A stretch of 64,000 bases of DNA, from the NCBI GenBank assembly GCA_964343605.1, contig CAYFKJ010000002.1, positions 629,176 through 693,175 of the forward strand. The letters are read 5' to 3'. Both the position numbers and the translations under genes were made by a program. The notes below the pieces were generated by a model that saw nothing but the letters and a program-made list of their open reading frames with translations, searched no databases and was not told the DNA's origin. Below, piece after piece: positions 3,680 to 61,128 of this stretch (positions are counted from its first letter, which is position 1; each line of letters starts with the position of its first letter). Source of the stretch: an uncultured Rhodospirillaceae bacterium (GTDB lineage: Bacteria; Pseudomonadota; Alphaproteobacteria; UBA2966).

Positions 3680-3768
3680 GCCTGTCTCTCTGGGGTGCCC
3701 GATAGGGCTGAGAAAAACCCATTGAACCTGAACCAGATCATGCTGGCGGAGGAAGTCGGAGACGAAAA
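3680..3768 (+). promoter_or_regulatory. TPP (thiamine pyrophosphate) riboswitch, THI element
   Basis: ctgGGGTGCCCgatagGGCTGAGAaaaACCCattGAACCTGAaCcAGATCATGCTGGCGgAGGaAg matches the conserved THI-box core (CUGGGGUGCCC...GCUGAGA...ACCC..UGAACCUGAUC..GGAUAAUGCCAGCG.AGGGA). It is flanked by a P1 pairing gtctc/gagac and lies directly upstream of thiB. Confidence 0.85.
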
Positions 3769-3833
3769 GGTACTTCACATACCCTTTCGAAAACTCATCC
3801 ACCGCCGCCCAACGCTATGAAGAGGGCGAGTTG

Positions 3834-4856
3834 ATGAAACGATCTACTATTCCAAACCTGGGCCTCCTGGTGGGGCTCGTTCTAATGGTCTGCGGCGCCG
3901 CGGCGTCGCAAGCAGCCGACAAGCCTGTGCTGACCGTCTACACCTACGATGCCTTTGCCGCGGAGTGGGGGCCGGCGCCGGCCATCAAGAAGTCGTTCGA
4001 GGCCGAATGCGACTGCATCCTCGATTTCGTCGCTACGGATTCCTCCATCGGCATTCTGCGCAAACTCCAGCTTGAAGGGGCCAACACCAAGGCGGATATC
4101 GCTTTGGGCCTCGACACCAACCTGACGGACGTTGCCCGCAAGACCGGCTTGTTCGACAGCCACGGGGCCGACACCGGCAATCTCGCACTGCCCGTGAGTT
4201 GGTCGGATGACACCTTCGTGCCGTTCGACTACGGCTATTTCTCGTTCGTCTACAACAGCGAGAAACTCAAGAATGCGCCGACCTCGTTCAAGGCTCTGGC
4301 CGAACGGGGCGGCGACTTCAAGATCGTCATTCAGGACCCTCGCTCCAGCACCCCGGGTCTCGGACTGCTGCTGTGGATCAAGGAGGCCTATGGCGACGAG
4401 GCAGCCGCCATTTGGGGCAAGCTGGCGCCGAAGATCCTGACAGTGACAAAAGGCTGGTCGGACGCCTACGGCTTATTCCTCAAGGGTGAAGCCGACATGG
4501 TATTGTCCTACACCACTTCTCCGGCTTATCACCTCATTGCCGAAAAGGACGCCCGCTTCAAATCGGCTGCCTTCTCGGAAGGACACTACATGCAGGTGGA
4601 AGTCGCCTCCGTGGTGAAGTCGACCAAGCAGCCCAAACTTGCCCGCCAGTTCATGCAGTTCATCCTGTCGGACGGCTTCCAGGGCGCCATTCCAACGGGA
4701 AATTGGATGTATCCGGCGGCCAAGACCGCGAGCGGCCTGCCCAAGGGTTTCGACACGCTTGAGGTTCCGGCAAAGTCGTTGTTGATGTCGAGCGACAGGG
4801 TCGAAAAGAACCGCAAGGCCTGGATCGACGAATGGCTTTCGGCGCTCAAGCGGTAG
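3834..4856 (+). CDS. thiB: thiamine ABC transporter periplasmic substrate-binding protein
   Basis: Signal peptide, then a TbpA/ThiB-like mature protein (LTVYTYDAFAAEWGPAPAIKK...STPGLGLLLW...). It sits downstream of the TPP riboswitch and upstream of thiP/thiQ. GAGGG lies 11 nt before the ATG at 3834. Confidence 0.85.
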   Translation: MKRSTIPNLGLLVGLVLMVCGAAASQAADKPVLTVYTYDAFAAEWGPAPAIKKSFEAECDCILDFVATDSSIGILRKLQLEGANTKADIALGLDTNLTDVARKTGLFDSHGADTGNLALPVSWSDDTFVPFDYGYFSFVYNSEKLKNAPTSFKALAERGGDFKIVIQDPRSSTPGLGLLLWIKEAYGDEAAAIWGKLAPKILTVTKGWSDAYGLFLKGEADMVLSYTTSPAYHLIAEKDARFKSAAFSEGHYMQVEVASVVKSTKQPKLARQFMQFILSDGFQGAIPTGNWMYPAAKTASGLPKGFDTLEVPAKSLLMSSDRVEKNRKAWIDEWLSALKR

Positions 4857-6517
4857 CCGACCCGCCGCCGGGGCGGACAGCCCGATCAATTGTGGTCGGG
4901 CTGGCTCCCGGCGTTGCCATTTCCGTGGCGCTGCTGGCGATTGTCGCCTCGCTTTTCGCGGCCATCATCGCGGCGGCGCCGGACAGTGCCGCCACCGCAT
5001 TCGATGTGGGCGGGATCGGCCACATTCTTTGGATTACCGCCGTTCAGGCGGGTCTTTCCACGCTGTGCTCGATCACGCTGGGCCTTTTGATTGCCTGGAG
5101 CCTAAGTCATCGGCGGGAGTTTCCCGGCCGGCGAATTTTGATCGATCTGTTGGCGATCAGCATGGTCCTGCCGACCTTGGTGGCGGTTTTGGGGCTTGTT
5201 TCGGTGCTGGGCCGTAACGGTTGGTTGAATGCCGCGTTCGACGCCCTATGGGACGGCGGTATCGGCGGCGCCATCTACGGCTTGGGCGGTATCGTTATCG
5301 CCCACACCTATTTGAACGGTCCGTTCGCCGCCCGCACGCTGCTGCATCAATTGGAAGTCATTCCGGGTGAACGCTTCAAGGTGGCCCGCAGTCTCGGCAT
5401 GACGCCGTGGCAGCGTTTCCGGTTGGTCGAATGGCCGGCCCTGGCGCCGGCGCTGCCCGGCCTTGCCGGCCTGATATTCCTGCTGTGTTTCACGTCGTTC
5501 GCCGTCGTTCTCGTGCTGGGCGGCTCGCCGAAATTCAATACGCTGGAAGTGGCGATCTACGAAGCCGTAAAGCTCGACTTCGATCTTGTCCGGGCGGTCG
5601 GGCTGGCGTTGGTTCAGCTCGCCGTGTGCGGCGCGCTGGTGTTGCTGGCGGCCGGCGCCCGGCTGGAGGATCAATCCGCGACACCCTTGCCGCGATCGGA
5701 CATTTGGTCGGATCCCATCCGCACCGTCTACCTGCAAGCCGTCTTGATCGCGGCGTTCGTACTGTTCTTTCTCGGGCCGCTGATATCCGTGGTCGCCGAC
5801 GGTTTGAGGGCCGATTTTGGCGCAATCGCCGGCCAGGCATCTTTCCGGAGAGCCCTTCTCACAAGCCTGGTGATCGCCACCGCTTCAAGTCTCCTGACCC
5901 TTGTGCTGGCCTTGAACCTGGCCGGCGCGAAACGCTTTCTGGCCTCGCCGCTGCGGGCACCGCAAACGCCGTTGACCTGGTTGTTGGGGTGGCTGATCTC
6001 GTTCTGCGGGGCGATTTATTTGGCGCTCCCCGCTTTGGTGATGGGGCTGGGATTTTTCCTTGTCGCCCGACGCGTCGGCGCCGACCTTTCCCTCGTGGCG
6101 CCGTGGGTGCTGTTGTCCGCCAACGTCCTGCTCGCGCTGCCGTTCGCCATGGTCATCCTGACGCCGGCGATGGAGAAGGCGTCGCGCAAGTACGACAGAC
6201 AGGCCTTTGCGCTCGGCGTTCGCGGCTGGTCGCGGTGGCGCATCGTCGAATGGCCGTTGCTGCGGTCGGAAATCGCCTTTGTCGGCGCGATATCGTTCTG
6301 CCTGTCATTCGGCGATCTCGGTGTTATCGCCCTGTTCGGCAATCGCGATTTCGCGACGTTGCCTTGGCTGCTCTATCAGAAAATGGGCTCGTACCGGACC
6401 GACGATGCCGCCGGGATCGCCCTCATCCTGCTGGGTCTGACCGTCCTCGTGTTTTTCGCCCTTCCCAGGTTGCTTGGCCGGCGGACCGCGGAGCGGGAAC
6501 TTCATGCTGACGCTTGA
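4832..6517 (+). CDS. thiP: thiamine ABC transporter permease (two fused permease domains)
   Basis: About 560 aa polytopic protein with two ABC permease EAA-like loops. An in-frame GTG at about 4892 is an alternative start. Confidence 0.85.
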   Translation: MAFGAQAVADPPPGRTARSIVVGLAPGVAISVALLAIVASLFAAIIAAAPDSAATAFDVGGIGHILWITAVQAGLSTLCSITLGLLIAWSLSHRREFPGRRILIDLLAISMVLPTLVAVLGLVSVLGRNGWLNAAFDALWDGGIGGAIYGLGGIVIAHTYLNGPFAARTLLHQLEVIPGERFKVARSLGMTPWQRFRLVEWPALAPALPGLAGLIFLLCFTSFAVVLVLGGSPKFNTLEVAIYEAVKLDFDLVRAVGLALVQLAVCGALVLLAAGARLEDQSATPLPRSDIWSDPIRTVYLQAVLIAAFVLFFLGPLISVVADGLRADFGAIAGQASFRRALLTSLVIATASSLLTLVLALNLAGAKRFLASPLRAPQTPLTWLLGWLISFCGAIYLALPALVMGLGFFLVARRVGADLSLVAPWVLLSANVLLALPFAMVILTPAMEKASRKYDRQAFALGVRGWSRWRIVEWPLLRSEIAFVGAISFCLSFGDLGVIALFGNRDFATLPWLLYQKMGSYRTDDAAGIALILLGLTVLVFFALPRLLGRRTAERELHADA

Positions 6518-11519: not shown

Positions 11520-13706
11520 ATGACTAAGCATGTGGAAAAAAGCGGTCTGGCGATCGCTGAAGAACTTGTGGACCTGGTTGGCAACGAAATCACGCCGGGC
11601 ACGGGCATTGATGCGGATGCGGTGTGGGAAGCGCTTGCCGGCATGATCGAAGTGCTTGCGCCAAGGAACAGGGCATTGTTGCAGCGACGCGACGACCTTC
11701 AGGCCGAAATCGATGCCTGGCATTTGGAGCGCAAGGGCCAGCCGTTGGATGCCGAAGCTTATAAGGCTTTCCTCACGGAGATCGGCTACCTCGAGGCCGA
11801 AGGGGAGGACTTCGCAATTGGCACGGCGAACGTGGATGCGGAAATCGCCGTGATCGCCGGGCCTCAGCTCGTGGTGCCGGTCATGAATGCCCGCTACGCC
11901 CTGAATGCCGCAAACGCCCGCTGGGGCAGCTTTTACGATGCGCTTTACGGCACGGATGCGATTTCGGAGGCCGACGGGTGTGAGCGCAGCGGTGGCTACA
12001 ACGCCAAGCGCGGGGCCAAGGTTATCGATTTCGCCAACAGCTTCCTCGATCAAGCCGCGCCCCTGGCCGCCGGCGGCCACGGCGAGGCCGTGGCCTATCG
12101 CCTGGCGGATGGCGATGGCGGAAAAGTGCTGCTGGTCGAAATGGCGGACGGGGGCGAAACCGGCCTTCGCGATCCTGCGCAGTTCGTCGGCTACACGGGC
12201 GGTGACGTACCCGACGCCGTCCTGCTGAAGAACAACAACCTCCACATCGAAATTCAGATCGACCGCAACCACCCGGTCGGCAAGGACGATCCCGCGGGCA
12301 AGAAGGATGTCGTTCTGGAGGCCGCCATCACGACCATTCAGGACTGCGAAGATTCGGTTGCCGCCGTGGATGCCGAGGACAAGGCGCTGGTCTACCGCAA
12401 TTGGCTCGGCCTGATGAAGGGCGATTTGGAGGAAGAGCTGGACAAGGGCGGCCGCACCGTTACCCGCCGCCTGAACGCCGATCGGGAGTATTCCGCGGCG
12501 AACGGCGGGACGCTGACGCTGAAGGGCCGGAGCCTTTTGCTGGTGCGCAACGTCGGTCATTTGATGACGACCGACGCCGTGCTGTCGCCGGAAGGCGAGG
12601 AAATCCCGGAAGGTATCCTGGATGCCTTGATGACCAGCCTTTGTGCGCTTCATGATATACGCGGGCAAGGCGCCAAGGCCAACAGCACGACCGGCAGCAT
12701 CTACATCGTGAAGCCGAAAATGCACGGTCCCGATGAAGTGGCCTTCACCGGCGAGATTTTCAGCATGGTTGAAGACGCCCTCGATCTGCCGCGCAACACG
12801 CTGAAGATCGGCATCATGGACGAAGAGCGCCGAACCACGGTGAACCTCAAGGCTTGCATCCGGGCAGCCCAGGACCGCCTGGTTTTCATCAACACCGGCT
12901 TCCTCGATCGTACCGGTGACGAAATCCACACCAGCATGGAAGCCGGGCCTTTCCTGTGCAAGGACGCTATCAAGGCCCAGCCCTGGATTGCCGCCTACGA
13001 GGACTGGAATGTCGATATCGGCCTGGAGACAGGCCTGTCGGGCAAGGCGCAGATCGGCAAGGGTATGTGGGCCATGCCGGACGAAATGGACAAGATGCTG
13101 GCCGCCAAGATCGGCCATCCCGAAGCCGGCGCCAACTGCGCCTGGGTGCCGTCACCGACGGCGGCAACCCTGCACGTCATGCACTACCACCAGGTTGACG
13201 TCGCCGCCAGGCAACGGACGTTGGCGTCGCGCGAGCGGGCCAGCCTCGACGACATATTGTCGGTACCGCTGTTGGCCGGGCAGAATCTGTCGCCGGACGA
13301 AATCAGGGATGAATTGGACAATAACGCCCAAGGGATTCTCGGTTACGTCGTGCGTTGGATCGACGCCGGCGTGGGCTGTTCCAAAGTGCCGGACATCAAC
13401 GACATCGGTTTGATGGAGGACCGGGCGACGTTACGGATTTCCAGCCAGCATATCGCCAACTGGCTGCATCACGGCATTTGCAGCGAGGAACAGGTGAGGG
13501 AGACGATGGAACGGATGGCGGAAGTTGTCGATCGGCAGAACGCGGGAGATCCGACCTATCGCAACATGGCGCCGGACTTTGCCGGCAGTATCGCCTTTCA
13601 GGCGGCTTGCGATCTTGTTTTCAAGGGGCGGGAGCAACCCAGCGGCTATACCGAACCGATCCTCCACGCCCGTCGCCGCGAGGTCAAAGCCCTGGCGGCG
13701 AATTGA
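11520..13706 (+). CDS. glcB: malate synthase G
   Basis: 728 aa, colinear with GlcB-type malate synthases (the N-terminal [20 protein letters not shown]... and overall organisation). Confidence 0.9.
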
Positions 13707-17341: not shown

Positions 17342-18211
17342 ATGAAATTCCAAGCCACCTCTTTTGCCCTGTCCGCCGCCATCGGCTTGGGCGCAATCGC
17401 GATCGCCAACGGCGCCGTTGCCGAGGAATTCAAGGATCCGGTTATCGCCAGGGTGAACGGCGACGCGATCTACAAGTCCGAAGTCCTGATGTTCTTCCAG
17501 AGCCTGCCGGACCAATACAAGCAGATGCCCATCGGCGTCCTGTTCCCGCAACTGCGGGCAGCGCTGGTCGACCGCAGGATCATCTCCCAGCAGGCGAAGA
17601 AGGAAAACCTCGGTGACGACGAGGCCGTCAAGCGACAGATGGCGTTCTTCCTCGACGGTGTTCTGCAGGATCGCTATCTCGACAAGCACGTCCGGGCGAA
17701 GCTGACCGAGCAACGCCTGCGCAAGATCTATGACGACACCATCGCCAAACAAAAACCCGAGGACGAAGTTCACGCCCGGCATATCCTGTTGGAGAACGAG
17801 GAAGACGCCAAGGCGGTCATCGCTGAAATCAAGGGCGGCGCCGACTTCGCCGAAACGGCCAAGAAGCGCTCGAAGGGGCCGTCCGCGCCGCGCGGCGGCG
17901 ATTTGGGTTTCTTCGCCAAAGCCGCGATGGTGCCGGAATTCGCCGAAGCCGCCTTCGCCATGAAGGCGGGTGAGGTTTCCGAGAGCGCGGTAAAAACCCA
18001 GTTCGGCTGGCATGTCATCAAGGTGGAAGCCCGCCGCGAGGGCAAAAATCCCAGTTTCGAGGATAGCGTCGACAAGATCCGCACCGCGGAGGCCCAGAAG
18101 ATTTCCCTCGAATTGATGGCGGAATTGCGCAGCGACGCCAAGATCGAGGAATTCAACGACGACGGATCGGAAATCAAGCCGATCGTCAAGCCGAAGGCTA
18201 AATCCGAATAG
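17342..18211 (+). CDS. parvulin-type peptidyl-prolyl cis-trans isomerase (SurA/PpiC-like, secreted)
   Basis: Signal peptide, then a PpiC rotamase domain (HARHILL...GGDLGFF...GWHVIKV). Confidence 0.8.
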   Translation: MKFQATSFALSAAIGLGAIAIANGAVAEEFKDPVIARVNGDAIYKSEVLMFFQSLPDQYKQMPIGVLFPQLRAALVDRRIISQQAKKENLGDDEAVKRQMAFFLDGVLQDRYLDKHVRAKLTEQRLRKIYDDTIAKQKPEDEVHARHILLENEEDAKAVIAEIKGGADFAETAKKRSKGPSAPRGGDLGFFAKAAMVPEFAEAAFAMKAGEVSESAVKTQFGWHVIKVEARREGKNPSFEDSVDKIRTAEAQKISLELMAELRSDAKIEEFNDDGSEIKPIVKPKAKSE

Positions 18212-18274
18212 CGGTTATCCGGAAGCCGCGTTTTAGCATTTGGTTTTGAAGGCCATTTCGTAAACCCAGCGCTC

Positions 18275-18400
18275 AGGCCTGGACTCCCGCCTTCGCGGGA
18301 GTGACGGGGAGGATTGGGAATCGCGATGGCGCTGCGCCAACTCCACTTCGTCATTCCCGCGAAGGCGGGAATCCATGCCGTAGCAATTCATTCCCGCAAC
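18275..18400. repeat. REP/MITE-like GC-rich hairpin repeat cluster, locus A
   Basis: Two hairpin units in opposite orientation (actcccgcCTTCgcgggagt, then cattcccgcGAAGgcgggaatc) plus a partial third (cattcccgc). The same unit recurs near 55.9 kb and 61.0 kb. Confidence 0.6.
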
Positions 18401-18580
18401 GCCTCTAGTTATTCCGGCACGCATGGGAGATGCAATCGGGCAGGAACTCGCTGAATTCCGCGGGTCGCTTTTCCTATGGCCCGTGTCGCGACCGGGATAG
18501 AATAGCGCCCAAGCCTGGGGCGAACTGCCCCAGGTAGAAATCGGGGAGCCGCCGGGAACCCCCGCCCGGCGTTTGGTTCA

Positions 18581-19831
18581 GTGACGCGCTATTCCATCTT
18601 CAGTTTGTTGCGGAACGCCATCGGTCACCATAAGGATTGGCCGCTGGCTTGGCGCAGTCCGGACCCAAAAGCGGAATACGATGTCGTCATCGTCGGCGGC
18701 GGCGGCCACGGTCTGGCCACCGCCTATTACCTGGCCAAGGAACACGGCATCACGAACGTCGCGGTGCTCGAGAAGGGTTGGCTCGGCGGCGGCAACACGG
18801 GGCGCAACACCACAATCATCCGGTCCAACTACTTGTGGGACGAAAGCGCCCACCTCTACGAACATTCGTTGAAGCTCTACGAGGGCCTGAGCCAGGATCT
18901 CAACTACAACATCATGCTGAGCCAGCGCGGGGTTCTCAATCTGGCGCACAATCAGCACGACCTCCGGGAGCTCTCACGGCGTATCTCGGCCAACCGGTTG
19001 AACGGCATCGATTCGGAATTCCTCAACCCGGTGGACATCAAGCGCATGGTACCCCTGCTGGATGTATCGCCGCGTGCCCGCTATCCGGTCCTTGGCGCTT
19101 CCCTGCAGCGGCGCGGCGGGGTCGCCCGTCACGATGCCGTGGCCTGGGGTTATGCCAGGGCAGCGGATGCGCGCGGCGTCGATGTGATCCAACAGTGCGA
19201 AGTCACGGGTATCCTGCGTGAAGGGGGCGCGGTGACAGGCGTGGAAACCTCGCGCGGCACCATCAAGGCGAAGAAGGTCGCCCTCGCGGTGGCCGGACAC
19301 ACCAGCATGCTGGCTCAAATGGCGGAAGTCCGCCTGCCGATCACCAGTCACCCTTTGCAGGCGATGGTATCGGAACCGGTCAAGCCCGCGCTCGACCAGG
19401 TCGTCATGTCGGCTGCAGTCCACGGCTACATCAGTCAATCGGACCGGGGAGAAATGGTGATGGGGGCAGGCATCGACACGCTCACCGGCTACACCCAGCG
19501 CGGCAGCCTGCCGGTGGTCGAAGAGCTGCAGCGCGCCATCGTCGTGCTGTTCCCCTCATTCAGCCGGCTCCGTCTCATGCGCCAATGGGGCGGTATCGTC
19601 GATACCTGCCCGGACGCCAGTCCCATTATTTCCAAAACCCCGGTCGAGGGACTTTACGTCAACGGCGGCTGGGGCACCGGCGGGTTCAAGGCGACGCCGG
19701 GGTCCGGTTGGGTCTATGCCCACACCATCGCCCGGGACGAAGCCCATGAACTGAACGCGCCGTTCGCCTTGGAGCGCTTCACGACGGGCGCACTGATCGA
19801 CGAACACGGCGCAGCGGCGGTGGCCCACTGA
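18581..19831 (+). CDS. soxB: sarcosine oxidase subunit beta
   Basis: FAD motif [19 protein letters not shown]. The gene is colinear with heterotetrameric SoxB. GTG start. Confidence 0.9.
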
Positions 19832-19832
19832 C

Positions 19833-20117
19833 ATGCTGATCATCGAGTGCCCCTGGTGCGGCCCCCGCGATGAGGCCGAGTTTCAATACGGCGGCGAGGC
19901 CCATATCGTGCGTCCGGAAAAACCGGCGGAACTGACGGACGAGCAATGGGCCGAGTACCTCTTCATGCGCACCAACACCAAGGGCCGCTTCCTTGAACGC
20001 TGGATGCACAGCGCCGGATGCCGGCGTTGGTTCAACAGCGTGCGCAACACCGCCACCAACGAAATCGAGGCCGTCTACCGCATGGGCGAGCAGCCGCCCG
20101 GGGACGATGGCGCATGA
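19833..20117 (+). CDS. soxD: sarcosine oxidase subunit delta
   Basis: 94 aa with MLIIECPWCGPRDEAEF, the typical SoxD zinc-ribbon start. It lies between soxB and soxA, and its stop overlaps the soxA ATG (ATGA). Confidence 0.88.
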   Translation: MLIIECPWCGPRDEAEFQYGGEAHIVRPEKPAELTDEQWAEYLFMRTNTKGRFLERWMHSAGCRRWFNSVRNTATNEIEAVYRMGEQPPGDDGA

Positions 20118-23100
20118 GCATCCAGTCGCACCGCGTCCGCGTGGAGCAGGCGCCCGCCGCCCGCATCGACCGCTCGAAGGCCCTTTGGTTTACCTTCAAC
20201 GGCCGGCGCTATCAGGGCTTTGAGGGAGACACGCTGGCCTCGGCGCTGGTCGCCAACGGTGTCCGGTTGGTGGGGCGAAGCTTTAAATACCATCGTCCGC
20301 GCGGCCTCTTCGCTGCCGGGTCGGAAGAGCCCAACGCCATCGTCCAGGTGGAGAGCGGCGCCCAGACCCTGCCGAACCTGCGCGCAACTCAGGTGGAACT
20401 TTACGACGGGCTGACGGCGGATAGCGTCAATGCCTGGCCCAGCGTCGACTTCGATATCGGCGTCGTCAACGACCTCGCGTCGCGTTTGCTTCCAGCCGGA
20501 TTCTATTACAAGACCTTCATGTGGCCGGCGGGCTGGTGGATGACTTACGAACATGTCATCCGCCGTGCCGCCGGTCTCGGCATCGCGCCCCCGTCGGGGG
20601 ATCCCGACACCTACGACCACATGCACGTCCATTGCGACGTCCTAGTCGTCGGTGGCGGACCGACGGGACTGGCCGCGGCGCTGGCTGCGGGACGGACCGG
20701 CGCCCGCGTAATCATCGCCGACGAACAGTCGGAGCTGGGCGGCGCGCTGTTGAGCAGCCGCGCTCAAGTGGACAATGCACCGGGTCTCGAATGGGTGCAA
20801 TCCACCCTGTCCGAATTAACCGAAATGGCGGAAGTTCGCGTCATGCCGAGAACCACGGCATTCGGCCATTACGATCACAATTACATTGGTTTGCTGGAAC
20901 GCCGGTCGGATCATCTCGGACCGGGACGCGGCGGCGACAACATTACGCGCCAAAGAATCTGGAAGGTCAGGGCGGGTCAGGTGATCCACGCCGGGGGCGC
21001 CATCGAACGGCCCCTAGTGTTCGCCGGCAATGACCGACCCGGCGTGATGCTGGCATCCGGGGCGGCCGCTTACGTCAACAGATGGGCGGCTTCGCCCGGC
21101 CGGCGTGCGGTGATTTTTGCCAATAATGATTCGGCTTATGCCGCCGCCGCCGACCTGGTTGACGCCGGCGTCGCCGTGGAAGCCCTGATCGACGTACGCG
21201 GCGAACCGGGTATGGATGCCCGAACGCAGGTCGAGGCGCGCGATATCGAAATTCTGACCGGGTACGCCGTCGTGGGCACTCGAGGCCGGCGAGCCGTCGA
21301 GGGCGTCGATGTGATGCGTCTCAATGAAGACGGTACGGGTCTCAACGTGGGCGACAGGAAAATCGAATGCGATCTCGTCGCCGTTTCCGGCGGTTGGAGC
21401 CCCGCCGTCCATCTCCATTGCCACGCCGGGGGCAAGGTTGCGTACGATGCCATTCAGGGCTGCTTCGTGCCCGGCGCGACGACCCAGGCGGCGCGGTCAG
21501 CCGGCGCCGCCAACGGTCAGTTCGAGTTGGCCGAGTGCCTGTCCAGCGGTTGGCAGGCAGGTGCGGATGCCGCCGATGCGCAAGGCTTCCGCAAGCCGGG
21601 AAGGGCACCCAAGCCGCCTTCCGCCGAGTTTGTTTCGACGGCGCCGCCACGCCATCTCTGGACGGTTCCGGCCAAGCCGGGGCGGCAAAACGGCGTCAAG
21701 CGCTTCGTCGATCTGCAGCATGACGTGACCGACGCCGATATCCGGCTGGCGGCGCGGGAGGGCTATCAGTCGGTCGAACACCTCAAGCGATACACGACGC
21801 TGGGCATGGGTACCGACCAAGGCAAAACGTCCAACGTGCCGGGCCTCGCGATTCTGGCGGAAGAACTCGAAAAGCCGATTCCGGAGGTTGGCACGACCAC
21901 GTTCCGGCCGCCCTATACCGCCGTCACCATGGGGGCGATCGCCGGCCGTCATGTCGGGCAGATGCTCGATCCCTTGCGCCGTTCGCCCATGCACCACTGG
22001 CACGAGGACCACGGCGCCGCCTTCGAGGACGTGGGGCAGTGGAAACGGCCGTGGTTTTACCCACGTGAGGGCGAGGACATACATGCCGCGGTCGATCGCG
22101 AATGTCTGGCGGCACGCAACGCCATCGGCATTCTCGACGCCACCACGCTTGGCAAGATCGACATCCAGGGTCCCGACGCCGCCGAATTCCTCAACCGGAT
22201 CTATACCAATGCCTGGTCCAAGCTGGAAGTCGGCCGCTGCCGCTACGGTCTGATGCTGGGCGAGGACGGCATGATCATGGACGACGGCGTAACCTCCCGC
22301 ATCGCCGAAAACCGCTATCTGATGACGACGACCAGCGGCAACGCCGCTGCGGTTCTGGGCTGGTTGGAGGAATGGCTGCAGACGGAATGGCCGGATCTCC
22401 GCGTCTACTGCAATTCCATATCGGAATACTGGGCGACTTTGACGATCAGCGGGCCGCTCGCCCGCAATCTGCTGGCGGAGCTTTGTACGGATATCGATCT
22501 TTCCGCGGACGCCTTCCCGTTTATGTCCTGGCGCGAGGGGACAGTGGCGGGAACGCCGGCCCGCATCTTCCGCATCAGCTTCACCGGCGAGGTGAGCTAC
22601 GAGATCAACGTCGGCGCCTCACACGGCCTCGGCCTCTGGCAGACCCTGATGACGGCCGGCGAGAAATACGGCATCACCCCCTACGGCACCGAGAGCATGC
22701 ACGTGCTGCGCGCCGAGAAGGGCTACATCATCGTGGGTCAGGATACCGACGGTACGATGACGCCCGGCGATTGCGGCATGGATTGGATCGTCTCCAAGAA
22801 AAAGCCGGATTTCATTGGCAAACGGAGCCTAAGCCGGCCCGATACCGTGCGCGGGGATCGCAAGCAACTCGTGGGTCTGTACACCGAAGATCCCTTGCAG
22901 GTGCTGCCGGAGGGAGCACAAATCGTCGACGATCCCGACGCCGCCCTGCCCATGCCGATGATCGGGCACGTCACGTCGAGCTACCACAGCGCCAACCTTG
23001 GCCGCTCCATTGCCTTGGCGGTGGTCAAGGGAGGGCTCGGTCGGATGGGTGAGACCGTACATCTGCCGCTGGAGAACGGGCGCACGGCGCGGGCCGAAAT

Positions 23101-23149
23101 AACCGGTACTGTGTTCTACGACCCTGAAGGGGAGAGGCTCCATGGCTGA
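20114..23149 (+). CDS. soxA: sarcosine oxidase subunit alpha
   Basis: About 1010 aa with an N-terminal 2Fe-2S-like/NAD region, an FAD Rossmann (VLVVGGGPTGLAAA) and a C-terminal GcvT-like folate-binding domain. Confidence 0.9.
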   Translation: MSIQSHRVRVEQAPAARIDRSKALWFTFNGRRYQGFEGDTLASALVANGVRLVGRSFKYHRPRGLFAAGSEEPNAIVQVESGAQTLPNLRATQVELYDGLTADSVNAWPSVDFDIGVVNDLASRLLPAGFYYKTFMWPAGWWMTYEHVIRRAAGLGIAPPSGDPDTYDHMHVHCDVLVVGGGPTGLAAALAAGRTGARVIIADEQSELGGALLSSRAQVDNAPGLEWVQSTLSELTEMAEVRVMPRTTAFGHYDHNYIGLLERRSDHLGPGRGGDNITRQRIWKVRAGQVIHAGGAIERPLVFAGNDRPGVMLASGAAAYVNRWAASPGRRAVIFANNDSAYAAAADLVDAGVAVEALIDVRGEPGMDARTQVEARDIEILTGYAVVGTRGRRAVEGVDVMRLNEDGTGLNVGDRKIECDLVAVSGGWSPAVHLHCHAGGKVAYDAIQGCFVPGATTQAARSAGAANGQFELAECLSSGWQAGADAADAQGFRKPGRAPKPPSAEFVSTAPPRHLWTVPAKPGRQNGVKRFVDLQHDVTDADIRLAAREGYQSVEHLKRYTTLGMGTDQGKTSNVPGLAILAEELEKPIPEVGTTTFRPPYTAVTMGAIAGRHVGQMLDPLRRSPMHHWHEDHGAAFEDVGQWKRPWFYPREGEDIHAAVDRECLAARNAIGILDATTLGKIDIQGPDAAEFLNRIYTNAWSKLEVGRCRYGLMLGEDGMIMDDGVTSRIAENRYLMTTTSGNAAAVLGWLEEWLQTEWPDLRVYCNSISEYWATLTISGPLARNLLAELCTDIDLSADAFPFMSWREGTVAGTPARIFRISFTGEVSYEINVGASHGLGLWQTLMTAGEKYGITPYGTESMHVLRAEKGYIIVGQDTDGTMTPGDCGMDWIVSKKKPDFIGKRSLSRPDTVRGDRKQLVGLYTEDPLQVLPEGAQIVDDPDAALPMPMIGHVTSSYHSANLGRSIALAVVKGGLGRMGETVHLPLENGRTARAEITGTVFYDPEGERLHG

Positions 23150-23747
23150 TCCCTTGAGGCAAAGCGCCCTGGCGCATCTCCATCTCATCGCCCGGGCGGA
23201 AGCTTCGCCGGCCGATGCCGGGGTGGTTCTGGGTGAGCGAGGATTCCGCAGTCAATGGACATTGCGCGGGCATTTCGAAGATGAAGTGTTTACTGCCGCG
23301 GTCTTAAGCGAAACCGGCAGCGCGCCGCCGCTCAAGCCCAATACGGTTCATGCCAGCGGCGGCATCGAGGTGCTGTGGCTCGGTCCCGACGAATGGCTGG
23401 TCGTGGGGCCGGACGGCTCCGAGGTCGGTAAAAGGCTGGGCGAAGCCCTTAAGGACACGCATGCCGCGGCAACCGAAGTTAGCGAAAGCCGAACGTTGAT
23501 AGCGTTGTCCGGTCCCCATGCGCGCGATGTCTTGGCGAAGGGCTGTGCCCTTGATCTGCATCCCAGCAAATTTGCCGCCGGTCAGTGCGCCCAGTCGACG
23601 CTCGGCCATATCCACATTATTCTGCATCAGCGAACGAACGAGCCTGAGTTCGACATATTTGTCCATCGCAGCTTCGCCGAATCCCTGTGGCAGTGGCTGG
23701 AAGACGCCGCCGCCGAATACGGCGTGGCGATTTCAAACCCCTCATAA
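23142..23747 (+). CDS. soxG: sarcosine oxidase subunit gamma
   Basis: 201 aa directly after soxA with an 8-nt overlap, carrying the SoxG family signature. Confidence 0.85.
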   Translation: MADPLRQSALAHLHLIARAEASPADAGVVLGERGFRSQWTLRGHFEDEVFTAAVLSETGSAPPLKPNTVHASGGIEVLWLGPDEWLVVGPDGSEVGKRLGEALKDTHAAATEVSESRTLIALSGPHARDVLAKGCALDLHPSKFAAGQCAQSTLGHIHIILHQRTNEPEFDIFVHRSFAESLWQWLEDAAAEYGVAISNPS

Positions 23748-23762
23748 CAAGCGGATGAGTCC

Positions 23763-24980
23763 ATGAGCAGTATCGACGACATGCCCCGTCTGATCCGCAT
23801 CGACAACGGCGAACGCCTGCCAGCGACATTCAGCCAGGCGGAGATGGACCGCCGTCTGGCGGGCGTCCGCGGACATATGGCCGAGGCGGAACTCGATGCG
23901 GTTCTCTTCACGTCGTACCACAACGTCAACTACCACGCCGATTTCCTCTATTGCGCCTTCGGACGTCCGTTCGGCGTGGTCGTGACGGCCGATGACAGCA
24001 CGTTGATTTCGGCCAACATCGACGGCGGGCAGCCGGGACGGCGCAGTCCCGGAAATTTGGTCTACACCGATTGGCAGAGGGATAACTTCATTGCGGCCGT
24101 GCAGCAGTTGGCGGGCGGGGCGATGCGGCTGGGCATCGAGTACGACCACGTCACGTTGGATGTCCGGGCCAAGCTGGAAGCGGCGCTGCCGGGTGTCGAA
24201 CTGATCGATGCGGCCCTGGCGGCAATGAAACGGCGCATGGTCAAATCGCCCGAGGAAATCGTCCTCATCAAGAACGGCGCACGGACGGCCGATATCGGCG
24301 GTGCCGCCTGCGTCGAAGCGATTTCGGAGGACGTACCCGAATACGAGGTCGCCAACCACGCCACCGCAGCCATGATCCGGGAGATCGCCAAGACTTATCC
24401 AGACAGCGAACTGCGCGATACCTGGACCTGGTTCCAGTCCGGCATCAACACCGACGGCGCGCACAATCCGGTAACCTCGCGCAGGCTGCAATCGGGAGAT
24501 ATCCTCAGCCTGAATTGCTTCCCCATGATCGCCGGTTACTACACGGCATTAGAGCGCACGCTGTTTTTGGACCACGCCTCGGAACGCCACCTGGAGCTGT
24601 GGCAGATTAACTGCGAGGTCCACCGCCGCGGCCTCGAACTGATCAGGCCCGGTGCACGCTGCTGCGATATCGCTCTGGAACTCAACGAAATCTACCGCGC
24701 CCATGGTCTCCTGGACCGCCGCACGTTCGGCTACGGCCATTCCTTCGGCGTGTTGTCGCATTACTACGGGCGCGAGGCGGGTCTCGAGCTGAGGGAGGAT
24801 ATCGAAACCGTGCTGGAGCCGGGCATAGTCGTCTCGATGGAACCGATGATCATGATCCCCGAAGGCCAGCCCGGCGCCGGCGGCTACCGGGAGCACGATA
24901 TTCTCGTGCTGACCGAGGACGGCGCCGAGAACATCACCAAATTTCCCTTCGGGCCGGAACACAACATCGTTTCAGGCTGA
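23763..24980 (+). CDS. creatinase (creatine amidinohydrolase, M24 family)
   Basis: By my recollection it is near-colinear with Pseudomonas putida creatinase (SANIDGGQP...VYTDWQRDN...TWTWFQSGINTDGAHNPVT...LSLNCFPMIAGYYTALERTLFLDH...FGYGHSFG...GGYREHDIL...ENITKFP). Confirm by BLASTP. Confidence 0.88.
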   Translation: MSSIDDMPRLIRIDNGERLPATFSQAEMDRRLAGVRGHMAEAELDAVLFTSYHNVNYHADFLYCAFGRPFGVVVTADDSTLISANIDGGQPGRRSPGNLVYTDWQRDNFIAAVQQLAGGAMRLGIEYDHVTLDVRAKLEAALPGVELIDAALAAMKRRMVKSPEEIVLIKNGARTADIGGAACVEAISEDVPEYEVANHATAAMIREIAKTYPDSELRDTWTWFQSGINTDGAHNPVTSRRLQSGDILSLNCFPMIAGYYTALERTLFLDHASERHLELWQINCEVHRRGLELIRPGARCCDIALELNEIYRAHGLLDRRTFGYGHSFGVLSHYYGREAGLELREDIETVLEPGIVVSMEPMIMIPEGQPGAGGYREHDILVLTEDGAENITKFPFGPEHNIVSG

Positions 24981-35762: not shown

Positions 35763-35962
35763 CATTCGCGCCCCTCCAAAAATTTAGCTTAAATGCCAAC
35801 TACTTAGGCCTTGCAAAGGCCCAAGTGGCTCCCCATATGCCGATTACGCAATCGTTGAGATTGTCCTCGACAAAGGCAAACCGTCGGAAACGGCGGGACG
35901 CAAAGCTTCGTACCTAAGGCTCACAGAGCTACGGCGGACGAGTTACCGAAAGGAAAGTAACG

Positions 35963-36778
35963 ATGCTCTCCATCAATACCAACCCGGTCGCCCATACCGG
36001 CATCCGGAATTTGAACGAGACGACGCGTGCGCTCGACCGGACCGGGGTGCGCATTTCCACCGGTCTCAAGGTCAACCGCCCACAGGACGACGCGGCGACG
36101 CTGGCCATCGCGCAAAGATTGATCGGCGACGTCGGCGCCGCCAAATCGGTAAAAATCGGGCTGGATTCGGCCCAGGCGAGCATCGGTGTCGCGGCCGTCG
36201 GCGCGGCGAATATTTCCGATCTTCTGGTGGATATGAAGTCGATCGCGGTAAAAGCGAGCCAGGAGAATCTCGACGCCGAATCCCGGCAGGCGCTGAACAA
36301 CGATTTCAACGCCCTGCGCGACCAGATCGGCACCATCGTGTCGTCCTCCGAATTCAACGGCACCAACCTGATCAAACCGGGGGCAGCGGATCTCAATGTT
36401 CTGAAGGATGTCGACGGCGGCCGCATCAACGTCGCCGCCCAGGACTTCAGCACCGCCGGGCTCGGTATCGACACGGCCGCCCTCGATTCGGCGGCCAATG
36501 CCCAGTCGGCCTTGAGCGCGATCGAAGCCGCCCTGAGCCAGGCGACCAGCCAGGAAGCCAGCCTTGGCTCCGCGGCCAAGCGCATCGAAAACCAGCAGGA
36601 CTTCACTGTCCAACTGCGCGACATCCAACAACAAGGCATCGGCAATCTGATCGATGCCGATCTCGGCAGGGAAAGCGCCGCGTTGCAGGCGGGGCGCGTC
36701 AAACAGCAATTGGGGTTGCAGGCCCTTTCCATCGCGAACTCGAGCCCGAAGCACATCCTCAGCCTGTTCCAGGGTTGA
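35963..36778 (+). CDS. flagellin (short, about 271 aa)
   Basis: Conserved flagellin N-terminus (MLSINTNPVA...LNETTRALDRTGVRISTGLKVNRPQDDAA) and C-terminus (...QQLGLQALSIANSSPKHILSLFQG). GGAAAG RBS. No other flagellar genes in the window. Confidence 0.8.
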   Translation: MLSINTNPVAHTGIRNLNETTRALDRTGVRISTGLKVNRPQDDAATLAIAQRLIGDVGAAKSVKIGLDSAQASIGVAAVGAANISDLLVDMKSIAVKASQENLDAESRQALNNDFNALRDQIGTIVSSSEFNGTNLIKPGAADLNVLKDVDGGRINVAAQDFSTAGLGIDTAALDSAANAQSALSAIEAALSQATSQEASLGSAAKRIENQQDFTVQLRDIQQQGIGNLIDADLGRESAALQAGRVKQQLGLQALSIANSSPKHILSLFQG

Positions 36779-53261: not shown

Positions 53262-53428
53262 GCCTTGGGCTTGCCGGGCCGGCTTGACTTGGGCGATGAC
53301 GGTATCGCGATAATTGGTGGCGGCGGTGTGCTAGTTCAGGCTAAGGCGGGTAAGCAAGATTGGCCGAAAGCGGACCTCGCCGGGTCCGCGGTGCATTGGG
53401 CGACCAAAGTGTCAGTTGGGGAAGAGCA

Positions 53429-55864
53429 ATGAAATCTCAAGCGCGAGTTGTGGTTATCGGCGGCGGCGTCGTCGGCGTCAGTACACTTTATCATCTGGCC
53501 AAGAAGGGCTGGTCCGACGTCGTCCTGTTGGAGCGCACGGAACTTACGGCGGGCTCCACCTGGCACGCGGCCGGATTGCTGCCGCTCTTCAACATGAGCT
53601 ACACGGTTGGCCAGATCCACAAGTACTCCGTCGATCTCTACAAGACGCTGGAGGCGGAAACCGGTCAGGACGTCAGCTTCCATGTCACCGGCAACTTGCG
53701 CCTAGCCACAAACAAGGAGCGCATGGACGAGTATCAGAAGTACTGCGGTACGGCCAACACCATCGGGGTCCCGTTTGAACTGATCACGCCCGCCGAAATC
53801 AAGGAGTTGTGGCCGCTTTGCAACGTGGAAGGCCTGGTTGGCGCGCTATACCACCCCGACGACGGCCACATCGCGCCGGTGGACGTGACGCAAGCCATGG
53901 CAACCGGCGCCCGCAACAACGGCGCCGAGATTTACCGCCAGACCCAGGTCGACGCCATCGAACAGAAACCGAACGGTGAATGGCTGATCAAAACCAACCA
54001 GGGCGACATTACCTGCGAGCACGTGGTTTCCTGCACCGGCAACTACGCCCGCCAAACCCTGGCCATGGTCGGGCTGGATATTCCCGTCATTCCGGTCGAG
54101 CACCAATACATCGTCACCGACGAGGTGCCGGATCTGGTGGAACGCAAGAAACAGGGCTTGCCCGAGATGGCGGTATTGCGCGAATCGGACGCCTCCTATT
54201 ACCTGCGTGAGGAGCGCCAGGGCTACATCCTAGGTCCCTACGAGAAGGGTGCGCCGGCGTGCTTCGTCGACGGCGTGCCGGAGACCTTCGGTCAGGACCT
54301 CTTCCCCGGCGATCTCGAACGCTTGATGCCCCACGTCGAAGCCGCCATCAACCGTGTACCGACCTTCGAGGACGCCGGCATTAAGGACATCGTCAACGGA
54401 CCAATCGCCTATACGCCGGACGGCAGCCCGATGGTCGGACCGGCCTGGGGGCTCAAAAATTTCTGGATGTCGGAAGGTCACAGCTTCGGCGTTACCGCCG
54501 CCGGCGGCGCCGGCTGGCAATTGGCCGAGTGGATCGTCGAGGGGGAACCGGGAATCGACATGATGGACGTCGATCCCCGCCGCTTTGGCCCGTACGCCAA
54601 CAAGGCCTATACCAAGGCCAAGAACGAGGAATGCTACGAGCACGTCTTCATCATCCATTATCCGGACGAGGAACGCCCAGCGGCGCGCCCCGCCAAACAA
54701 AGCCCGTGTCACGAACGCCTCGATGCCGAGGGCGCCGTCTGGGGCCAGCGTTATGGTTGGGAGCGGCCCAATTGGTTCGCCCCCGAAGGCGTCGAGCGCA
54801 AGGACGTCTGGAGTTTCCGTCGCAGCAATTACTTCGAACATGTCGGTAACGAATGCCGTGCCGTGCGCGAGGGCGTGGCGCTGATTGACCTCACCAGTTT
54901 CACCAAGCATCTGGTAACGGGTCCGGGCGCAGCCGACTATCTGGCCGGTCTCGTTTGCCGCAAGCTGCCGATCAAGATCGGCCGTATCAACCTGGCCCAC
55001 GCCCTGACGGCGAAGGGCGGCGTGCGCTCGGAGTTCACCATCATGCGCGAAGGGGAGGAACAGTACTTCCTCGTCAGCTCGGGTGCCGCCGAGCGCTTCG
55101 ACAACGACTACCTGACCAAGCATCTGCCGGATGACGGCAGCGTGCGGCTCGACAACATCACCACGGCCAACGGCTGTTTCGTCGTTGTGGGACCGAAATC
55201 GCGCGAGCTGATGGCGCGGATTTCCGATGCCGATTTCTCCAACGAAGCCTTTCCCTGGCTCACGGGACAGACCATCCAGCTCGGCATGGCCCGCACCAGG
55301 GCACTGCGCGTGAATTTCGTCGGCGAACTAGGCTGGGAACTGCATCATCCGATCGAGTACCAGAACCACATCTACGACACCTTGGTTGCCGCGGCCGAGG
55401 ATCTCGGCGGTCTATCCATGTGCGGCATGCGCGCGATGGACAGCTTGCGTATCGAAAAGTCCTACCGCATGTGGGCCCAGGACCTGACGCGCGACTACAC
55501 GGTGCTGGAAGCCGGCCTCGACCGTTTCGTCCACCTCGACAAGGGCGAATTCATCGGCCGCGAGGCCTTGGTTGCCCAGAAGGAAGCAGGCATTCCCAAT
55601 ACCTTTGTCACGTTGGAGGTCGACGCTGTCGATGCCGACGCCTGGGGATCGGAGCCCTTGTTCGTCGGCGATACCATGATCGGCCGCGCTACCGCCGGCG
55701 CCTATGGCCATTGCGTCGGCAAGAGCCTGGCGCTGGCCTACGTCCAGCCCGACTACGGCGCCGTCGGCACCGAAATGGAGATCAACATCCTCGGCGACCG
55801 CCGCGCCGCCCGCGTCATCGAAGAATCCCCCTGGGATCCGGAGAACGAGAGGTTAAGGGGATAG
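53429..55864 (+). CDS. dimethylglycine dehydrogenase-like (FAD DAO domain + GcvT folate-binding domain)
   Basis: VVVIGGGVVGVSTLYHLA FAD motif, covalent-FAD His region (STWHAAG) and a C-terminal aminomethyltransferase fold. Start moved to MKSQARV. Confidence 0.85.
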   Translation: MKSQARVVVIGGGVVGVSTLYHLAKKGWSDVVLLERTELTAGSTWHAAGLLPLFNMSYTVGQIHKYSVDLYKTLEAETGQDVSFHVTGNLRLATNKERMDEYQKYCGTANTIGVPFELITPAEIKELWPLCNVEGLVGALYHPDDGHIAPVDVTQAMATGARNNGAEIYRQTQVDAIEQKPNGEWLIKTNQGDITCEHVVSCTGNYARQTLAMVGLDIPVIPVEHQYIVTDEVPDLVERKKQGLPEMAVLRESDASYYLREERQGYILGPYEKGAPACFVDGVPETFGQDLFPGDLERLMPHVEAAINRVPTFEDAGIKDIVNGPIAYTPDGSPMVGPAWGLKNFWMSEGHSFGVTAAGGAGWQLAEWIVEGEPGIDMMDVDPRRFGPYANKAYTKAKNEECYEHVFIIHYPDEERPAARPAKQSPCHERLDAEGAVWGQRYGWERPNWFAPEGVERKDVWSFRRSNYFEHVGNECRAVREGVALIDLTSFTKHLVTGPGAADYLAGLVCRKLPIKIGRINLAHALTAKGGVRSEFTIMREGEEQYFLVSSGAAERFDNDYLTKHLPDDGSVRLDNITTANGCFVVVGPKSRELMARISDADFSNEAFPWLTGQTIQLGMARTRALRVNFVGELGWELHHPIEYQNHIYDTLVAAAEDLGGLSMCGMRAMDSLRIEKSYRMWAQDLTRDYTVLEAGLDRFVHLDKGEFIGREALVAQKEAGIPNTFVTLEVDAVDADAWGSEPLFVGDTMIGRATAGAYGHCVGKSLALAYVQPDYGAVGTEMEINILGDRRAARVIEESPWDPENERLRG

Positions 55865-55879
55865 ACATAAGTTTCGTCA

Positions 55880-56036
55880 ACACCGTCACTCCCGCGTAAG
55901 CGGATTGACCGGAGGGCGGCAGCCATAGAAAAACCAATGTCACCCCGGACTTGATCCGGGGTCCAGGTTGTATTTTTTCTAATTCCTGGGAACAAAAAAC
56001 TAAGACCTGGATTCCGGCATGCGCCGGAATGACGAT
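55880..56036. repeat. REP/MITE-like GC-rich hairpin repeat cluster, locus B
   Basis: Degenerate unit gtcactcccgcgTAAGcggattgacc, then caccccggaCTTGATccggggtc, then ggattccggcATGCgccggaatgacg. Lies between convergent genes. Confidence 0.55.
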
Positions 56037-60295: not shown

Positions 60296-60997
60296 ATGGG
60301 CGTGCATCACGACAAGTCATTTCCGGGCGAAAACCTGAAATACCGCAAAGCCCGCGACGAATTGCTCGCTGCGGAAAAAGCGCTGCGGCGGCAGGTGGCG
60401 GAAGTCGCCGAAATGCGGAAGAACCTGCCCGCCGGCGGCCCGATCCCTACCGATTACGTATTCGAGGAGGGAGGGACCGATATTGGCGATACGGCAACCG
60501 TCAAGCAAACGCACTTTTCGGATTTGTTCGCAGACGGCAAGGACAGCCTGATCATCTACAGCTTCATGTACGGGCCCAACGCCGACAATGCCTGCCCCAT
60601 GTGCACGTCGTTGCTCGACAGCCTCAACGGCGCCGCCCCCCACGTAACCGATCGCGTGAACCTTGCGGTCGTTGCACGCTCCTCCATCGGCCGCATTCGG
60701 GATTGGGGCCGGGCGAGGGGCTGGAACAATCTCAGGCTCCTATCGTCGGCGAACAACACCTACAACATCGACTACTTCGCCGAAGGGCCCGAGGGCGATC
60801 AGTGGCCTGACATCAACGTTTTCGTGCGCCGAGACGGCGTCATTCACCACTACTACAATGCGGAGCTGTTTTTCGCGGAGACGGAGGAAGGCCAGCATCC
60901 CCGCCATGCCGACATGATTTGGCCGTTGTGGAATATCTTTGATCTCACGCCCGACGGTCGGGGTGACAACTGGTTCCCGAAATTGGATTACGGGTAG
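60296..60997 (+). CDS. DUF899 thioredoxin-fold family protein
   Basis: Characteristic DUF899 length (233 aa) and the CPMCTSLLD redox-like motif. Confidence 0.7.
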   Translation: MGVHHDKSFPGENLKYRKARDELLAAEKALRRQVAEVAEMRKNLPAGGPIPTDYVFEEGGTDIGDTATVKQTHFSDLFADGKDSLIIYSFMYGPNADNACPMCTSLLDSLNGAAPHVTDRVNLAVVARSSIGRIRDWGRARGWNNLRLLSSANNTYNIDYFAEGPEGDQWPDINVFVRRDGVIHHYYNAELFFAETEEGQHPRHADMIWPLWNIFDLTPDGRGDNWFPKLDYG

Positions 60998-61014
60998 TTT
61001 GTCTAAAAACCGAC

Positions 61015-61128
61015 AATCCGTCATTCCCGCGCAAGCGGGAATCCATGCCGTTACGGATAAATTTGAAACCTCGTCCCGAAAATCCTCTGCTCAGCCATGG
61101 ATCCCGGATCAAGTCCGGGATGACGAAA
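61015..61128. repeat. REP/MITE-like GC-rich hairpin repeat cluster, locus C
   Basis: gtcattcccgcgCAAGcgggaatccatgccg, then about 45 nt, then ggatcccggaTCAAGtccgggatgacg. This is the same family as loci A and B. Lies between convergent genes. Confidence 0.55.

Follow-up and report, generated by a model that had tools for sequence, protein, structure and literature searches.

Intergenic hairpins of an uncultured Rhodospirillaceae bacterium as copies of the CGTC-tagged REP family and probable targets, past or present, of an Ssn-type nuclease

Short GC-rich hairpins recur at three intergenic loci (A, B and C, at about 18.3, 55.9 and 61.0 kb) in a 64-kb stretch of contig CAYFKJ010000002.1 from an uncultured Rhodospirillaceae bacterium, the whole of which is called the window here. 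What kind of repeat are they, and what might recognize them? The initial annotation had described them as a family resembling repetitive extragenic palindromes (REPs). That description was borne out: judged by their sequence, the window hairpins are ordinary members of the CGTC-tagged REP superfamily (PMC3733652), which since 2025 has gone by the name NTS/SRM (PMC11893778), and are thus already known. Sequence, structure, arrangement and context all place them in this family. The window adds nothing mechanistically new, only further copies in an uncultured bacterium. We consider it quite probable that an Ssn-type enzyme encoded elsewhere in the genome has, or once had, the units as its targets.

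CGTC-tagged REPs were described in 2013 by Di Nocera, De Gregorio and Rocco in BMC Genomics (PMC3733652). Each unit consists of a CGTC or TGTC tag, a stem of 8-9 bp, a loop of 4-5 nt and a CCA tail; the loop is 4 nt long in CGTC-1 and 5 nt in CGTC-2. They predominate in alpha-Proteobacteria, and several CGTC families may co-exist in one genome. Units are mostly paired in opposite orientation with the tags outside ("HH"), often as heterodimers with spacers of 20-100 bp, and are found between convergent or co-directional open reading frames (ORFs), near 3' ends. The same study equated them with dRS3 of Neisseria and some of the palindromic elements (RPEs) of Rickettsia, and reported "no dedicated transposase" for them (PMC3733652). 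The names Neisseria Transformation Sequence (NTS) and Ssn-related motif (SRM) come from a 2025 report in Nature Communications (PMC11893778), in which NTS overlaps the older dRS3 repeat in Neisseria. Ssn is a small single-domain GIY-YIG nuclease (CDD cd10448) that was characterized in Neisseria and Wolbachia (PMC11893778).

One common frame describes all six complete units in the window (28-29 nt): a (C/T)GTC tag, an 8-bp stem, a loop of 4-5 nt and a CCA tail. The tag is CGTC in five units and TGTC in one. The loop is 4 nt long in four units and 5 nt in two, the latter being assigned to CGTC-2 by the described stem and loop lengths and not by consensus sequences. Every hairpin sequence quoted in the initial annotation was present where that annotation had placed it. 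The three hairpin types that it treated as separate companions are instead variants of the one frame with compensatory stem changes, as the 5' GTC tag and 3' CCA tail common to all of them indicate. The units, and the partial copies beside them, are as follows (free energies in kcal/mol, folded as single-stranded DNA).

18271-18384: locus A dimer with its tags on the inside (2013 nomenclature, "TT"), 42-nt spacer.
18279-18306, minus strand: locus A left member, complete CGTC-1-type unit CGTCACTCCCGCGAAGGCGGGAGTCCAG; SRM match; 8-bp stem, GAAG loop, dG -9.7.
18349-18376, plus strand: locus A right member, complete CGTC-1 / NTS unit CGTCATTCCCGCGAAGGCGGGAATCCAT; SRM match; NTS at 27/28 positions; dG -8.9, z -3.9.
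18388-18399, plus strand: left-half remnant TCATTCCCGCAA, a loose left-arm match that is weak alone.
18408-18436, minus strand: possible decayed unit containing ..ATTCCGGCACGCATGGGAGATGCA.., picked out by eye with low confidence; resembles the 56007-56034 unit; no SRM match.
55884-55911, plus strand: decayed CGTC-1 unit CGTCACTCCCGCGTAAGCGGATTGACCG, left arm intact and right arm eroded; folds out of register (dG -5.6, z -1.7).
55938-55966, plus strand: locus B left member, complete unit TGTCACCCCGGACTTGATCCGGGGTCCAG; 8-bp stem and 5-nt loop, CGTC-2 geometry; SRM match; dG -9.4.
56007-56034, minus strand: locus B right member, complete CGTC-1-like unit CGTCATTCCGGCGCATGCCGGAATCCAG with a CCGGCG stem; SRM match; NTS within 3 mismatches; dG -9.0.
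61019-61046, plus strand: locus C left member, complete CGTC-1 / NTS unit CGTCATTCCCGCGCAAGCGGGAATCCAT; SRM match; NTS at 27/28 positions; dG -9.0, z -4.1.
61097-61125, minus strand: locus C right member, complete unit CGTCATCCCGGACTTGATCCGGGATCCAT; 8-bp stem and 5-nt loop, CGTC-2 geometry; SRM match.

All complete units folded as single-stranded DNA in one register, with free energies of -8.4 to -9.7 kcal/mol and z-scores of -2.5 to -4.1, and the tag was unpaired throughout. At locus A the two units lie in opposite orientation, as had been noted earlier; a repeat finder recovered their arms as inverted over 48 nt with 79% complementarity, and as a single strand the dimer formed one long hairpin (dG -43.7 kcal/mol, z -7.05). 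Loci B and C each have a dimer of the tags-outside kind, the spacers being 40 and 50 nt long. The repeat finder also paired positions 18344-18381 with 61014-61051 as direct repeats (38 nt, 89% identity) and 55939-55965 with 61098-61124 as inverted ones (27 nt, 93% complementarity).

The hairpins are genuine and far above chance expectation. When the 64-kb window was scanned with the published SRM search sequence, HGTCWYN(0-2)YYVSBRHN(0-5)WNVSBRGN(0-2)RNCYNB (PMC11893778), all six complete units and no other site were matched, compared to 0.51 +/- 0.71 matches (maximum 3) in 100 dinucleotide-preserving shuffles of the window. The NTS consensus, CGTCATTCCCGCGMAVGCGGGAATCYRG (PMC11893778), was found in two units at 27/28 positions, that is within one mismatch, and in four units within three mismatches. 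A simpler core, TCCCGC-N4-GCGGGA, had four matches in the window against 0.66 expected. Six units in 64 kb correspond to about 94 per Mb; one SRM was present in 337 kb of control metagenome DNA, which had been retrieved via a relative of the rotamase gene that adjoins locus A and was unselected for the repeat.

Compared to the published CGTC REPs (PMC3733652), the window units fit in tag, stem, loop, tail, pairing and 3'-end location, and their stems begin with A-T in four of six cases, as in that family. Nothing of substance differs: two units have C-G in place of T-A at the second stem pair, and locus A is the rarer, tags-inside dimer. The likeness to NTS/SRM (PMC11893778) is equally close, with two units at 27/28 to NTS, an M-A-V loop in the type-1 units and an intergenic location. 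Relative to NTS/SRM in Neisseria or Wolbachia, the density in the window is modest and large clusters are absent. No link to transformation can be inferred for the organism of the window, and its cognate ssn gene, if present, lies outside the 64 kb. All six units have GTC before the stem and C after it without variation, including units with differing stems. In N. meningitidis, cleavage by SsnA mainly needs the three bases 5' of the palindrome, and binding depends above all on the 3' C (PMC11893778).

The initial annotation had asked whether the repeat might be limited to three copies genome-wide. An exact search of GTDB species genomes with the core GTCATTCCCGCG-N3-GCGGGAATCCATG instead revealed a large cross-phylum family that extends far beyond the window, with more than 120 stretches as a lower bound. 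Among the matches listed, hosts included alpha-, beta-, gamma- and delta-proteobacteria as well as metagenome-assembled genomes (MAGs) labelled Sedimentisphaerales, Pirellulales, Planctomycetales, Bacteroidota/Cytophagales, Anaerolineae and Dehalococcoidia; further MAG labels were Elainellales cyanobacterium, Spirochaetes, Candidatus Omnitrophus and Candidatus Daviesbacteria. This breadth is striking: genomes carrying labels as far apart as Proteobacteria, Planctomycetes, Chloroflexi and cyanobacteria, and one candidate-phylum MAG, have almost every letter of a 28-nt sequence in common. Both the cross-phylum breadth and the enzyme behind it have already been published. The organism of the window was itself absent among the GTDB loci listed with the core. 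The core CGTCATTCCCGCG-N3-GCGGGAATCCA also occurred in viral or proviral contigs, with at least 120 such stretches (IMG/VR loci L205-L324), many of which may be Neisseria prophage regions.

The GTDB matches listed were then used to ask what is conserved. The three free loop positions followed the M-A-V rule of Neisseria, with a middle A in 130 of 131 copies and a third position that was never T. Outside the unit nothing was conserved in the 131 copies, apart from a pyrimidine before GTC and a depletion of G upstream; therefore, the repeated entity is the unit of about 28 nt and not a longer element. Across 132 distinct 28-mers among these matches, 97.9% of stem cells were paired, compared to 89.6% when the 3' halves were re-dealt, and double-sided compensatory changes were found at four of the eight stem pairs. 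Together these two results indicate that the hairpin is under selection.

Arrangement in other genomes was similar to that in the window. Close pairs among the matches listed (n=73) comprised 58 tags-outside, 10 tandem and 5 tags-inside cases. The predominance of tags-outside pairs reproduces the 2013 statement (PMC3733652), and makes loci B and C the common kind of dimer and locus A the rare kind. The 29-nt unit at 61097-61125 was letter-identical in an Allosphingosinicella MAG (L079), where it has the same arrangement beside a CGTC-1 unit. This pairing of a type-1 unit on the plus strand with a type-2 unit on the minus strand recurred in two Sphingomonadales MAGs (L079 and L017), with spacers that align poorly.

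Two further features of the copies in other genomes were observed. In the eight bases upstream of the tag, G is depleted and pyrimidines are enriched (131 copies in GTDB loci L005-L124, among the matches listed), the share of G being about 10-18% at positions -8 to -3, 20% at -2 and 9% at -1. This G-poor octamer is the region of reported Ssn cutting, and the upstream octamers of the six window units are G-free or nearly so. Separately, the spacers of some betaproteobacterial tags-outside dimers, about 19-21 nt long, are nearly the same sequence (TTGGCC..TCAAAGTCAAC or the complement of this), both within and across MAGs (L012 518-594; L023 3703-3778 and 7481-7557; L026 4485-4560 and 6196-6270; L086 644-717; L112 2734-2808). 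In these lineages the whole dimer may be copied as one unit, in the manner of REPINs, the doublets of classical REPs.

Ssn binds the folded, oriented hairpin and cleaves single-stranded DNA only, a few nucleotides 5' of the unit; it is inactive on double-stranded DNA, on RNA and on the complementary strand, and in N. meningitidis its action means that less repeat-bearing transforming DNA is integrated (PMC11893778). We searched for ssn-like sequences beside the repeat in 240 loci (120 GTDB and 120 IMG/VR loci among those listed), which had been picked for the repeat alone. An ssn-like sequence lay directly beside a unit in 11 of the 240 loci listed (6/120 GTDB and 5/120 IMG/VR). Seven of these were intact genes of about 95-105 aa, including all five from the IMG/VR loci listed, and four were fragments or broken copies (L049, L058, L067 and L104), that in L104 being cut by the end of the locus. 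Two intact proteins were checked against Pfam and contained the GIY-YIG domain (PF01541, E 6e-14 and 2e-12). Searching the PDB by sequence with an Ssn-like protein yielded marginal matches only (E ~0.005), one of them to UPF0213 protein BH0048. The 337 kb of control metagenome DNA yielded no ssn match (0 of 80 control loci). The adjacency of repeat and ssn agrees with the published association (PMC11893778).

In four loci (L024, L049, L058 and L240) the gene was read as bracketed by a unit on the plus strand before it and a unit on the minus strand after it, and in three (L104, L119 and L259) it followed an upstream unit of the same orientation. The tags-outside dimers and the ssn brackets share one orientation.

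These observations are best accounted for if the window units are CGTC-tagged REP copies recognized, now or formerly, by an Ssn-type enzyme. The organism probably encodes such a single-stranded DNA nuclease, and we infer that it would cut the units in the window. Once single-stranded, the strand of a unit would form a hairpin with an 8-bp stem, leaving the (C/T)GTC tag unpaired on its 5' side and the CCA tail on its 3' side; the Ssn encoded elsewhere in the genome would bind this oriented hairpin and cut the single strand a few nucleotides 5' of the unit. Units would accumulate mostly as inverted pairs in intergenic DNA just past gene 3' ends, spots which, as we interpret them, may simply tolerate insertions. 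If the density in the window holds and a genome of 3-5 Mb is assumed, about 280-470 units would be present genome-wide.

Several points weigh against an Ssn-type enzyme as the recognizing agent. A scan of the 64-kb window for the GIY-YIG motif found nothing; tblastn of the window with two Ssn-like proteins had a best E value of 0.34, and a hidden Markov model built from seven Ssn sequences had a best E value of 2.6 against the six-frame translation of the window. An SsnA homologue is present in 81%, not all, of the genomes with more than 200 SRMs (PMC11893778). In three of the six units the stem departs from that of the Neisseria NTS, and mutations in the palindrome lowered the binding of N. 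meningitidis SsnA (PMC11893778); these three units would need an Ssn of other specificity, or would stay uncut. Finally, the authors of the 2013 study favoured a role at the RNA level, from the location of the units downstream of ORFs (PMC3733652).

A further step can be proposed tentatively: gene-less tags-outside dimers such as loci B and C might be miniature versions of the cassette formed by a plus-strand unit, ssn and a minus-strand unit, multiplied in trans by Ssn. The evidence for this is circumstantial. Dimers and cassettes share their orientation (58 of 73 close pairs and 4 brackets, among the matches listed), an internally deleted ssn lies between units in L049 and L058, and some betaproteobacterial dimers have the near-identical spacers described above. 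A resemblance to insertion sequences has been raised, with no mobility shown (PMC11893778). If the proposal is true, Ssn and the CGTC repeats would be a GIY-YIG-based counterpart of the RAYT/REPIN system, in which REPs are mobilized by a REP-associated tyrosine transposase (RAYT), and a second, mechanistically distinct mobile system based on single-stranded DNA hairpins.

The genes around the units were identified by Pfam assignments of ORFs together with the ORF map. The neighbours of locus A are co-directional plus-strand genes, one for a PpiC rotamase, which stops at 18211, and the other soxB, which starts at 18581. At locus B two genes converge, a dimethylglycine-dehydrogenase-like one (stop at 55864) and one for AMP nucleosidase (stop at 56046); at locus C the convergent pair is a DUF899 gene (stop at 60997) and an AraC-family regulator gene (stop at 61142), and the repeats lie between the 3' ends of each pair. 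The earlier statement that the elements sit at gene 3' ends, twice between convergent genes, was thereby confirmed. Where genes converge, units are separated from the stop codons by 11-21 nt; at locus A the rotamase stop is 67 nt away.

The alternative that survives best is that the units act in RNA, where hairpins at gene 3' ends could stop 3' exonucleases or aid termination and so be retained as terminators or mRNA stabilizers, the roles that the initial annotation had suggested. Such a role is compatible with the units being Ssn targets, and we regard it as rather unlikely to be what explains them. All three loci are just past stop codons, at the two convergent loci within the short distances given above; in both tags-outside dimers each convergent transcript would meet a unit tag-first, the hairpins are stable as folded, and RNA roles have been argued from this same location bias (PMC3733652). 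In addition, runs of T6 and A6 are found in the spacer of locus B, about 12 nt away from each stem, and one weak terminator-like match overlaps 55947-55964. The proposal of a classical terminator did not hold, however, as the stem of every unit lacks a T-run immediately behind it, and matches resembling terminators (3, 1 and 0, compared to 0.9, 0.7 and 0.4 expected from shuffles) were not enriched, none of them being on a unit's own stem. The asymmetric tag and tail and the constrained loop are kept near-identical across many phyla, which argues for recognition by a protein rather than for a generic RNA hairpin; the conserved asymmetric flanks are the determinants of single-stranded DNA cleavage and binding by SsnA in Neisseria, an enzyme that is inactive on RNA (PMC11893778).

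Also against a role in RNA, no Rfam family was above threshold at the repeat loci; across the whole window, gathering thresholds were passed only by a thiamine pyrophosphate (TPP) and a cyclic di-GMP-I (c-di-GMP-I) riboswitch, both away from the repeats. A permissive Rfam search of the three loci found nothing at B and C. At locus A the long hairpin had sub-threshold matches to models of eukaryotic microRNA precursors, which we read as the resemblance of one generic hairpin to another.

Far less probable is an origin as miniature inverted-repeat transposable elements (MITEs), which derive from an insertion sequence and move by cut-and-paste with a target-site duplication. The paired inverted units do resemble terminal inverted repeats, the gene-less tags-outside dimers are oriented like the cassette with ssn between two units, and in L049 and L058 the space between units is occupied by an ssn copy that is internally deleted or broken. 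Among the matches listed, however, 55 dimers had no target-site duplication above a re-paired control: flanking matches of 0, 2, 3 and 4 nt were found in 37, 11, 4 and 3 dimers, compared to 35.7, 13.6, 4.3 and 1.1 after re-pairing. Conserved internal sequence was likewise lacking, flanks and spacers differing between the window loci and in the 131 copies listed, and the two arms were often of different stem type (43 of the 55 dimers listed, and both in the window). Moreover, Ssn is a nuclease without demonstrated strand-transfer activity (PMC11893778). A MITE relic in the classical sense, as suggested in the initial annotation, therefore does not describe these elements, in which only the unit of about 28 nt is conserved. 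Because target-site duplications were absent and the window spacers are unrelated, neither a classical MITE nor REPIN-like copying of whole doublets is supported here.

Slightly less probable still are classical REPs and REPINs mobilized by a RAYT of the IS200/IS605-like kind. The anatomy is the same, with short tagged hairpins that are intergenic and occur as inverted pairs folding to long hairpins. The GTAG-tagged REPs, BIMEs (bacterial interspersed mosaic elements) and REPINs of E. coli, Pseudomonas and Stenotrophomonas share the tagged hairpin, the inverted doublets and the intergenic location with the window units, and a small nuclease gene flanked by repeats recalls the "REPtron" logic of RAYT REPs. 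The tag, by contrast, is CGTC or TGTC in all units and not GTAG, and the enzyme of the GTAG REPs is an HUH/Y1 transposase, not a GIY-YIG nuclease. RAYT/IS200 genes are present in many species that bear CGTC units, and none is flanked by them (PMC3733652). Where an ssn-like match was found, the gene directly beside the units was of the GIY-YIG type (no RAYT search was made at those loci). REPIN doublets are copied whole with conserved spacers, whereas the spacers of the window dimers are unrelated.

That the hairpins are chance GC-rich palindromes without a common origin has nothing in its favour beyond the 60% G+C of the window and is refuted by six occurrences of a 28-nt pattern where 0.5 would be expected, by a non-palindromic tag and tail common to the units, by an identical 29-mer in an unrelated genome (L079) and by more than 120 exact core matches elsewhere.

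With CGTC-tagged REP units, probably past or present targets of an Ssn-type enzyme, as the preferred reading, some consequences for annotation and assembly were apparent. The pseudo-ORFs that the repeats had been said to create were found again, with peptides of the kind ...VIPAKAGIHA... and ...GMDSRLRGND..., and a 52-aa ORF spanning the repeat was called as a gene in a metagenome copy (contig L002). Short ORFs of the VIPAKAGIH or MDSRLRGND type are repeat artefacts, and gene callers do call them.

The rotamase protein was found on four short ENA/Logan contigs only, which were 99.96-100% identical to the window. On three of these (L001-L003) the repeats were identical to those in the window. 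Contig L004 stops inside the unit at 18349-18376, at window position 18377, and the end of L002 corresponds to window position 18627. The end of L004 is consistent with the repeat breaking short-read assemblies, and a break inside a unit hints at multiple genomic copies. Among rotamase relatives in JGI metagenomes the best identity was 48%, too distant to offer an orthologous empty site for comparison.

Compared to the window, contig L002 (3176-5361) also lacks 1 nt, at window position 12296. Malate synthase G, a single 728-aa ORF in the window (11520-13706), is represented on L002 by two gene calls of 297 and 446 aa. The deletion would account for this split; it may be real variation, or an error made in sequencing or in assembly.

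A set of genes for the breakdown of methylated amines was also observed. It comprises 18581-24980 (soxB, soxD, soxA, soxG and a creatinase/M24 peptidase gene) and 53360-55864, the dimethylglycine-dehydrogenase-like gene. All three repeat loci are near or adjoin methylated-amine genes, which is most likely a coincidence.

The two riboswitches lie on the plus strand. The c-di-GMP-I riboswitch (35865-35950; Rfam RF01051, 79.6 bits, E 5e-14) is followed 12 nt downstream by a plus-strand flagellin gene (35963-36778, Pfam Flagellin_N and Flagellin_C), and this arrangement suggests direct control of flagellin expression by c-di-GMP in this organism. Downstream of the TPP riboswitch (3681-3771; RF00059, 63.4 bits), genes for an ABC-transporter solute-binding protein and permease occupy 3831-6517 on the plus strand and presumably encode a thiamine-related uptake system.

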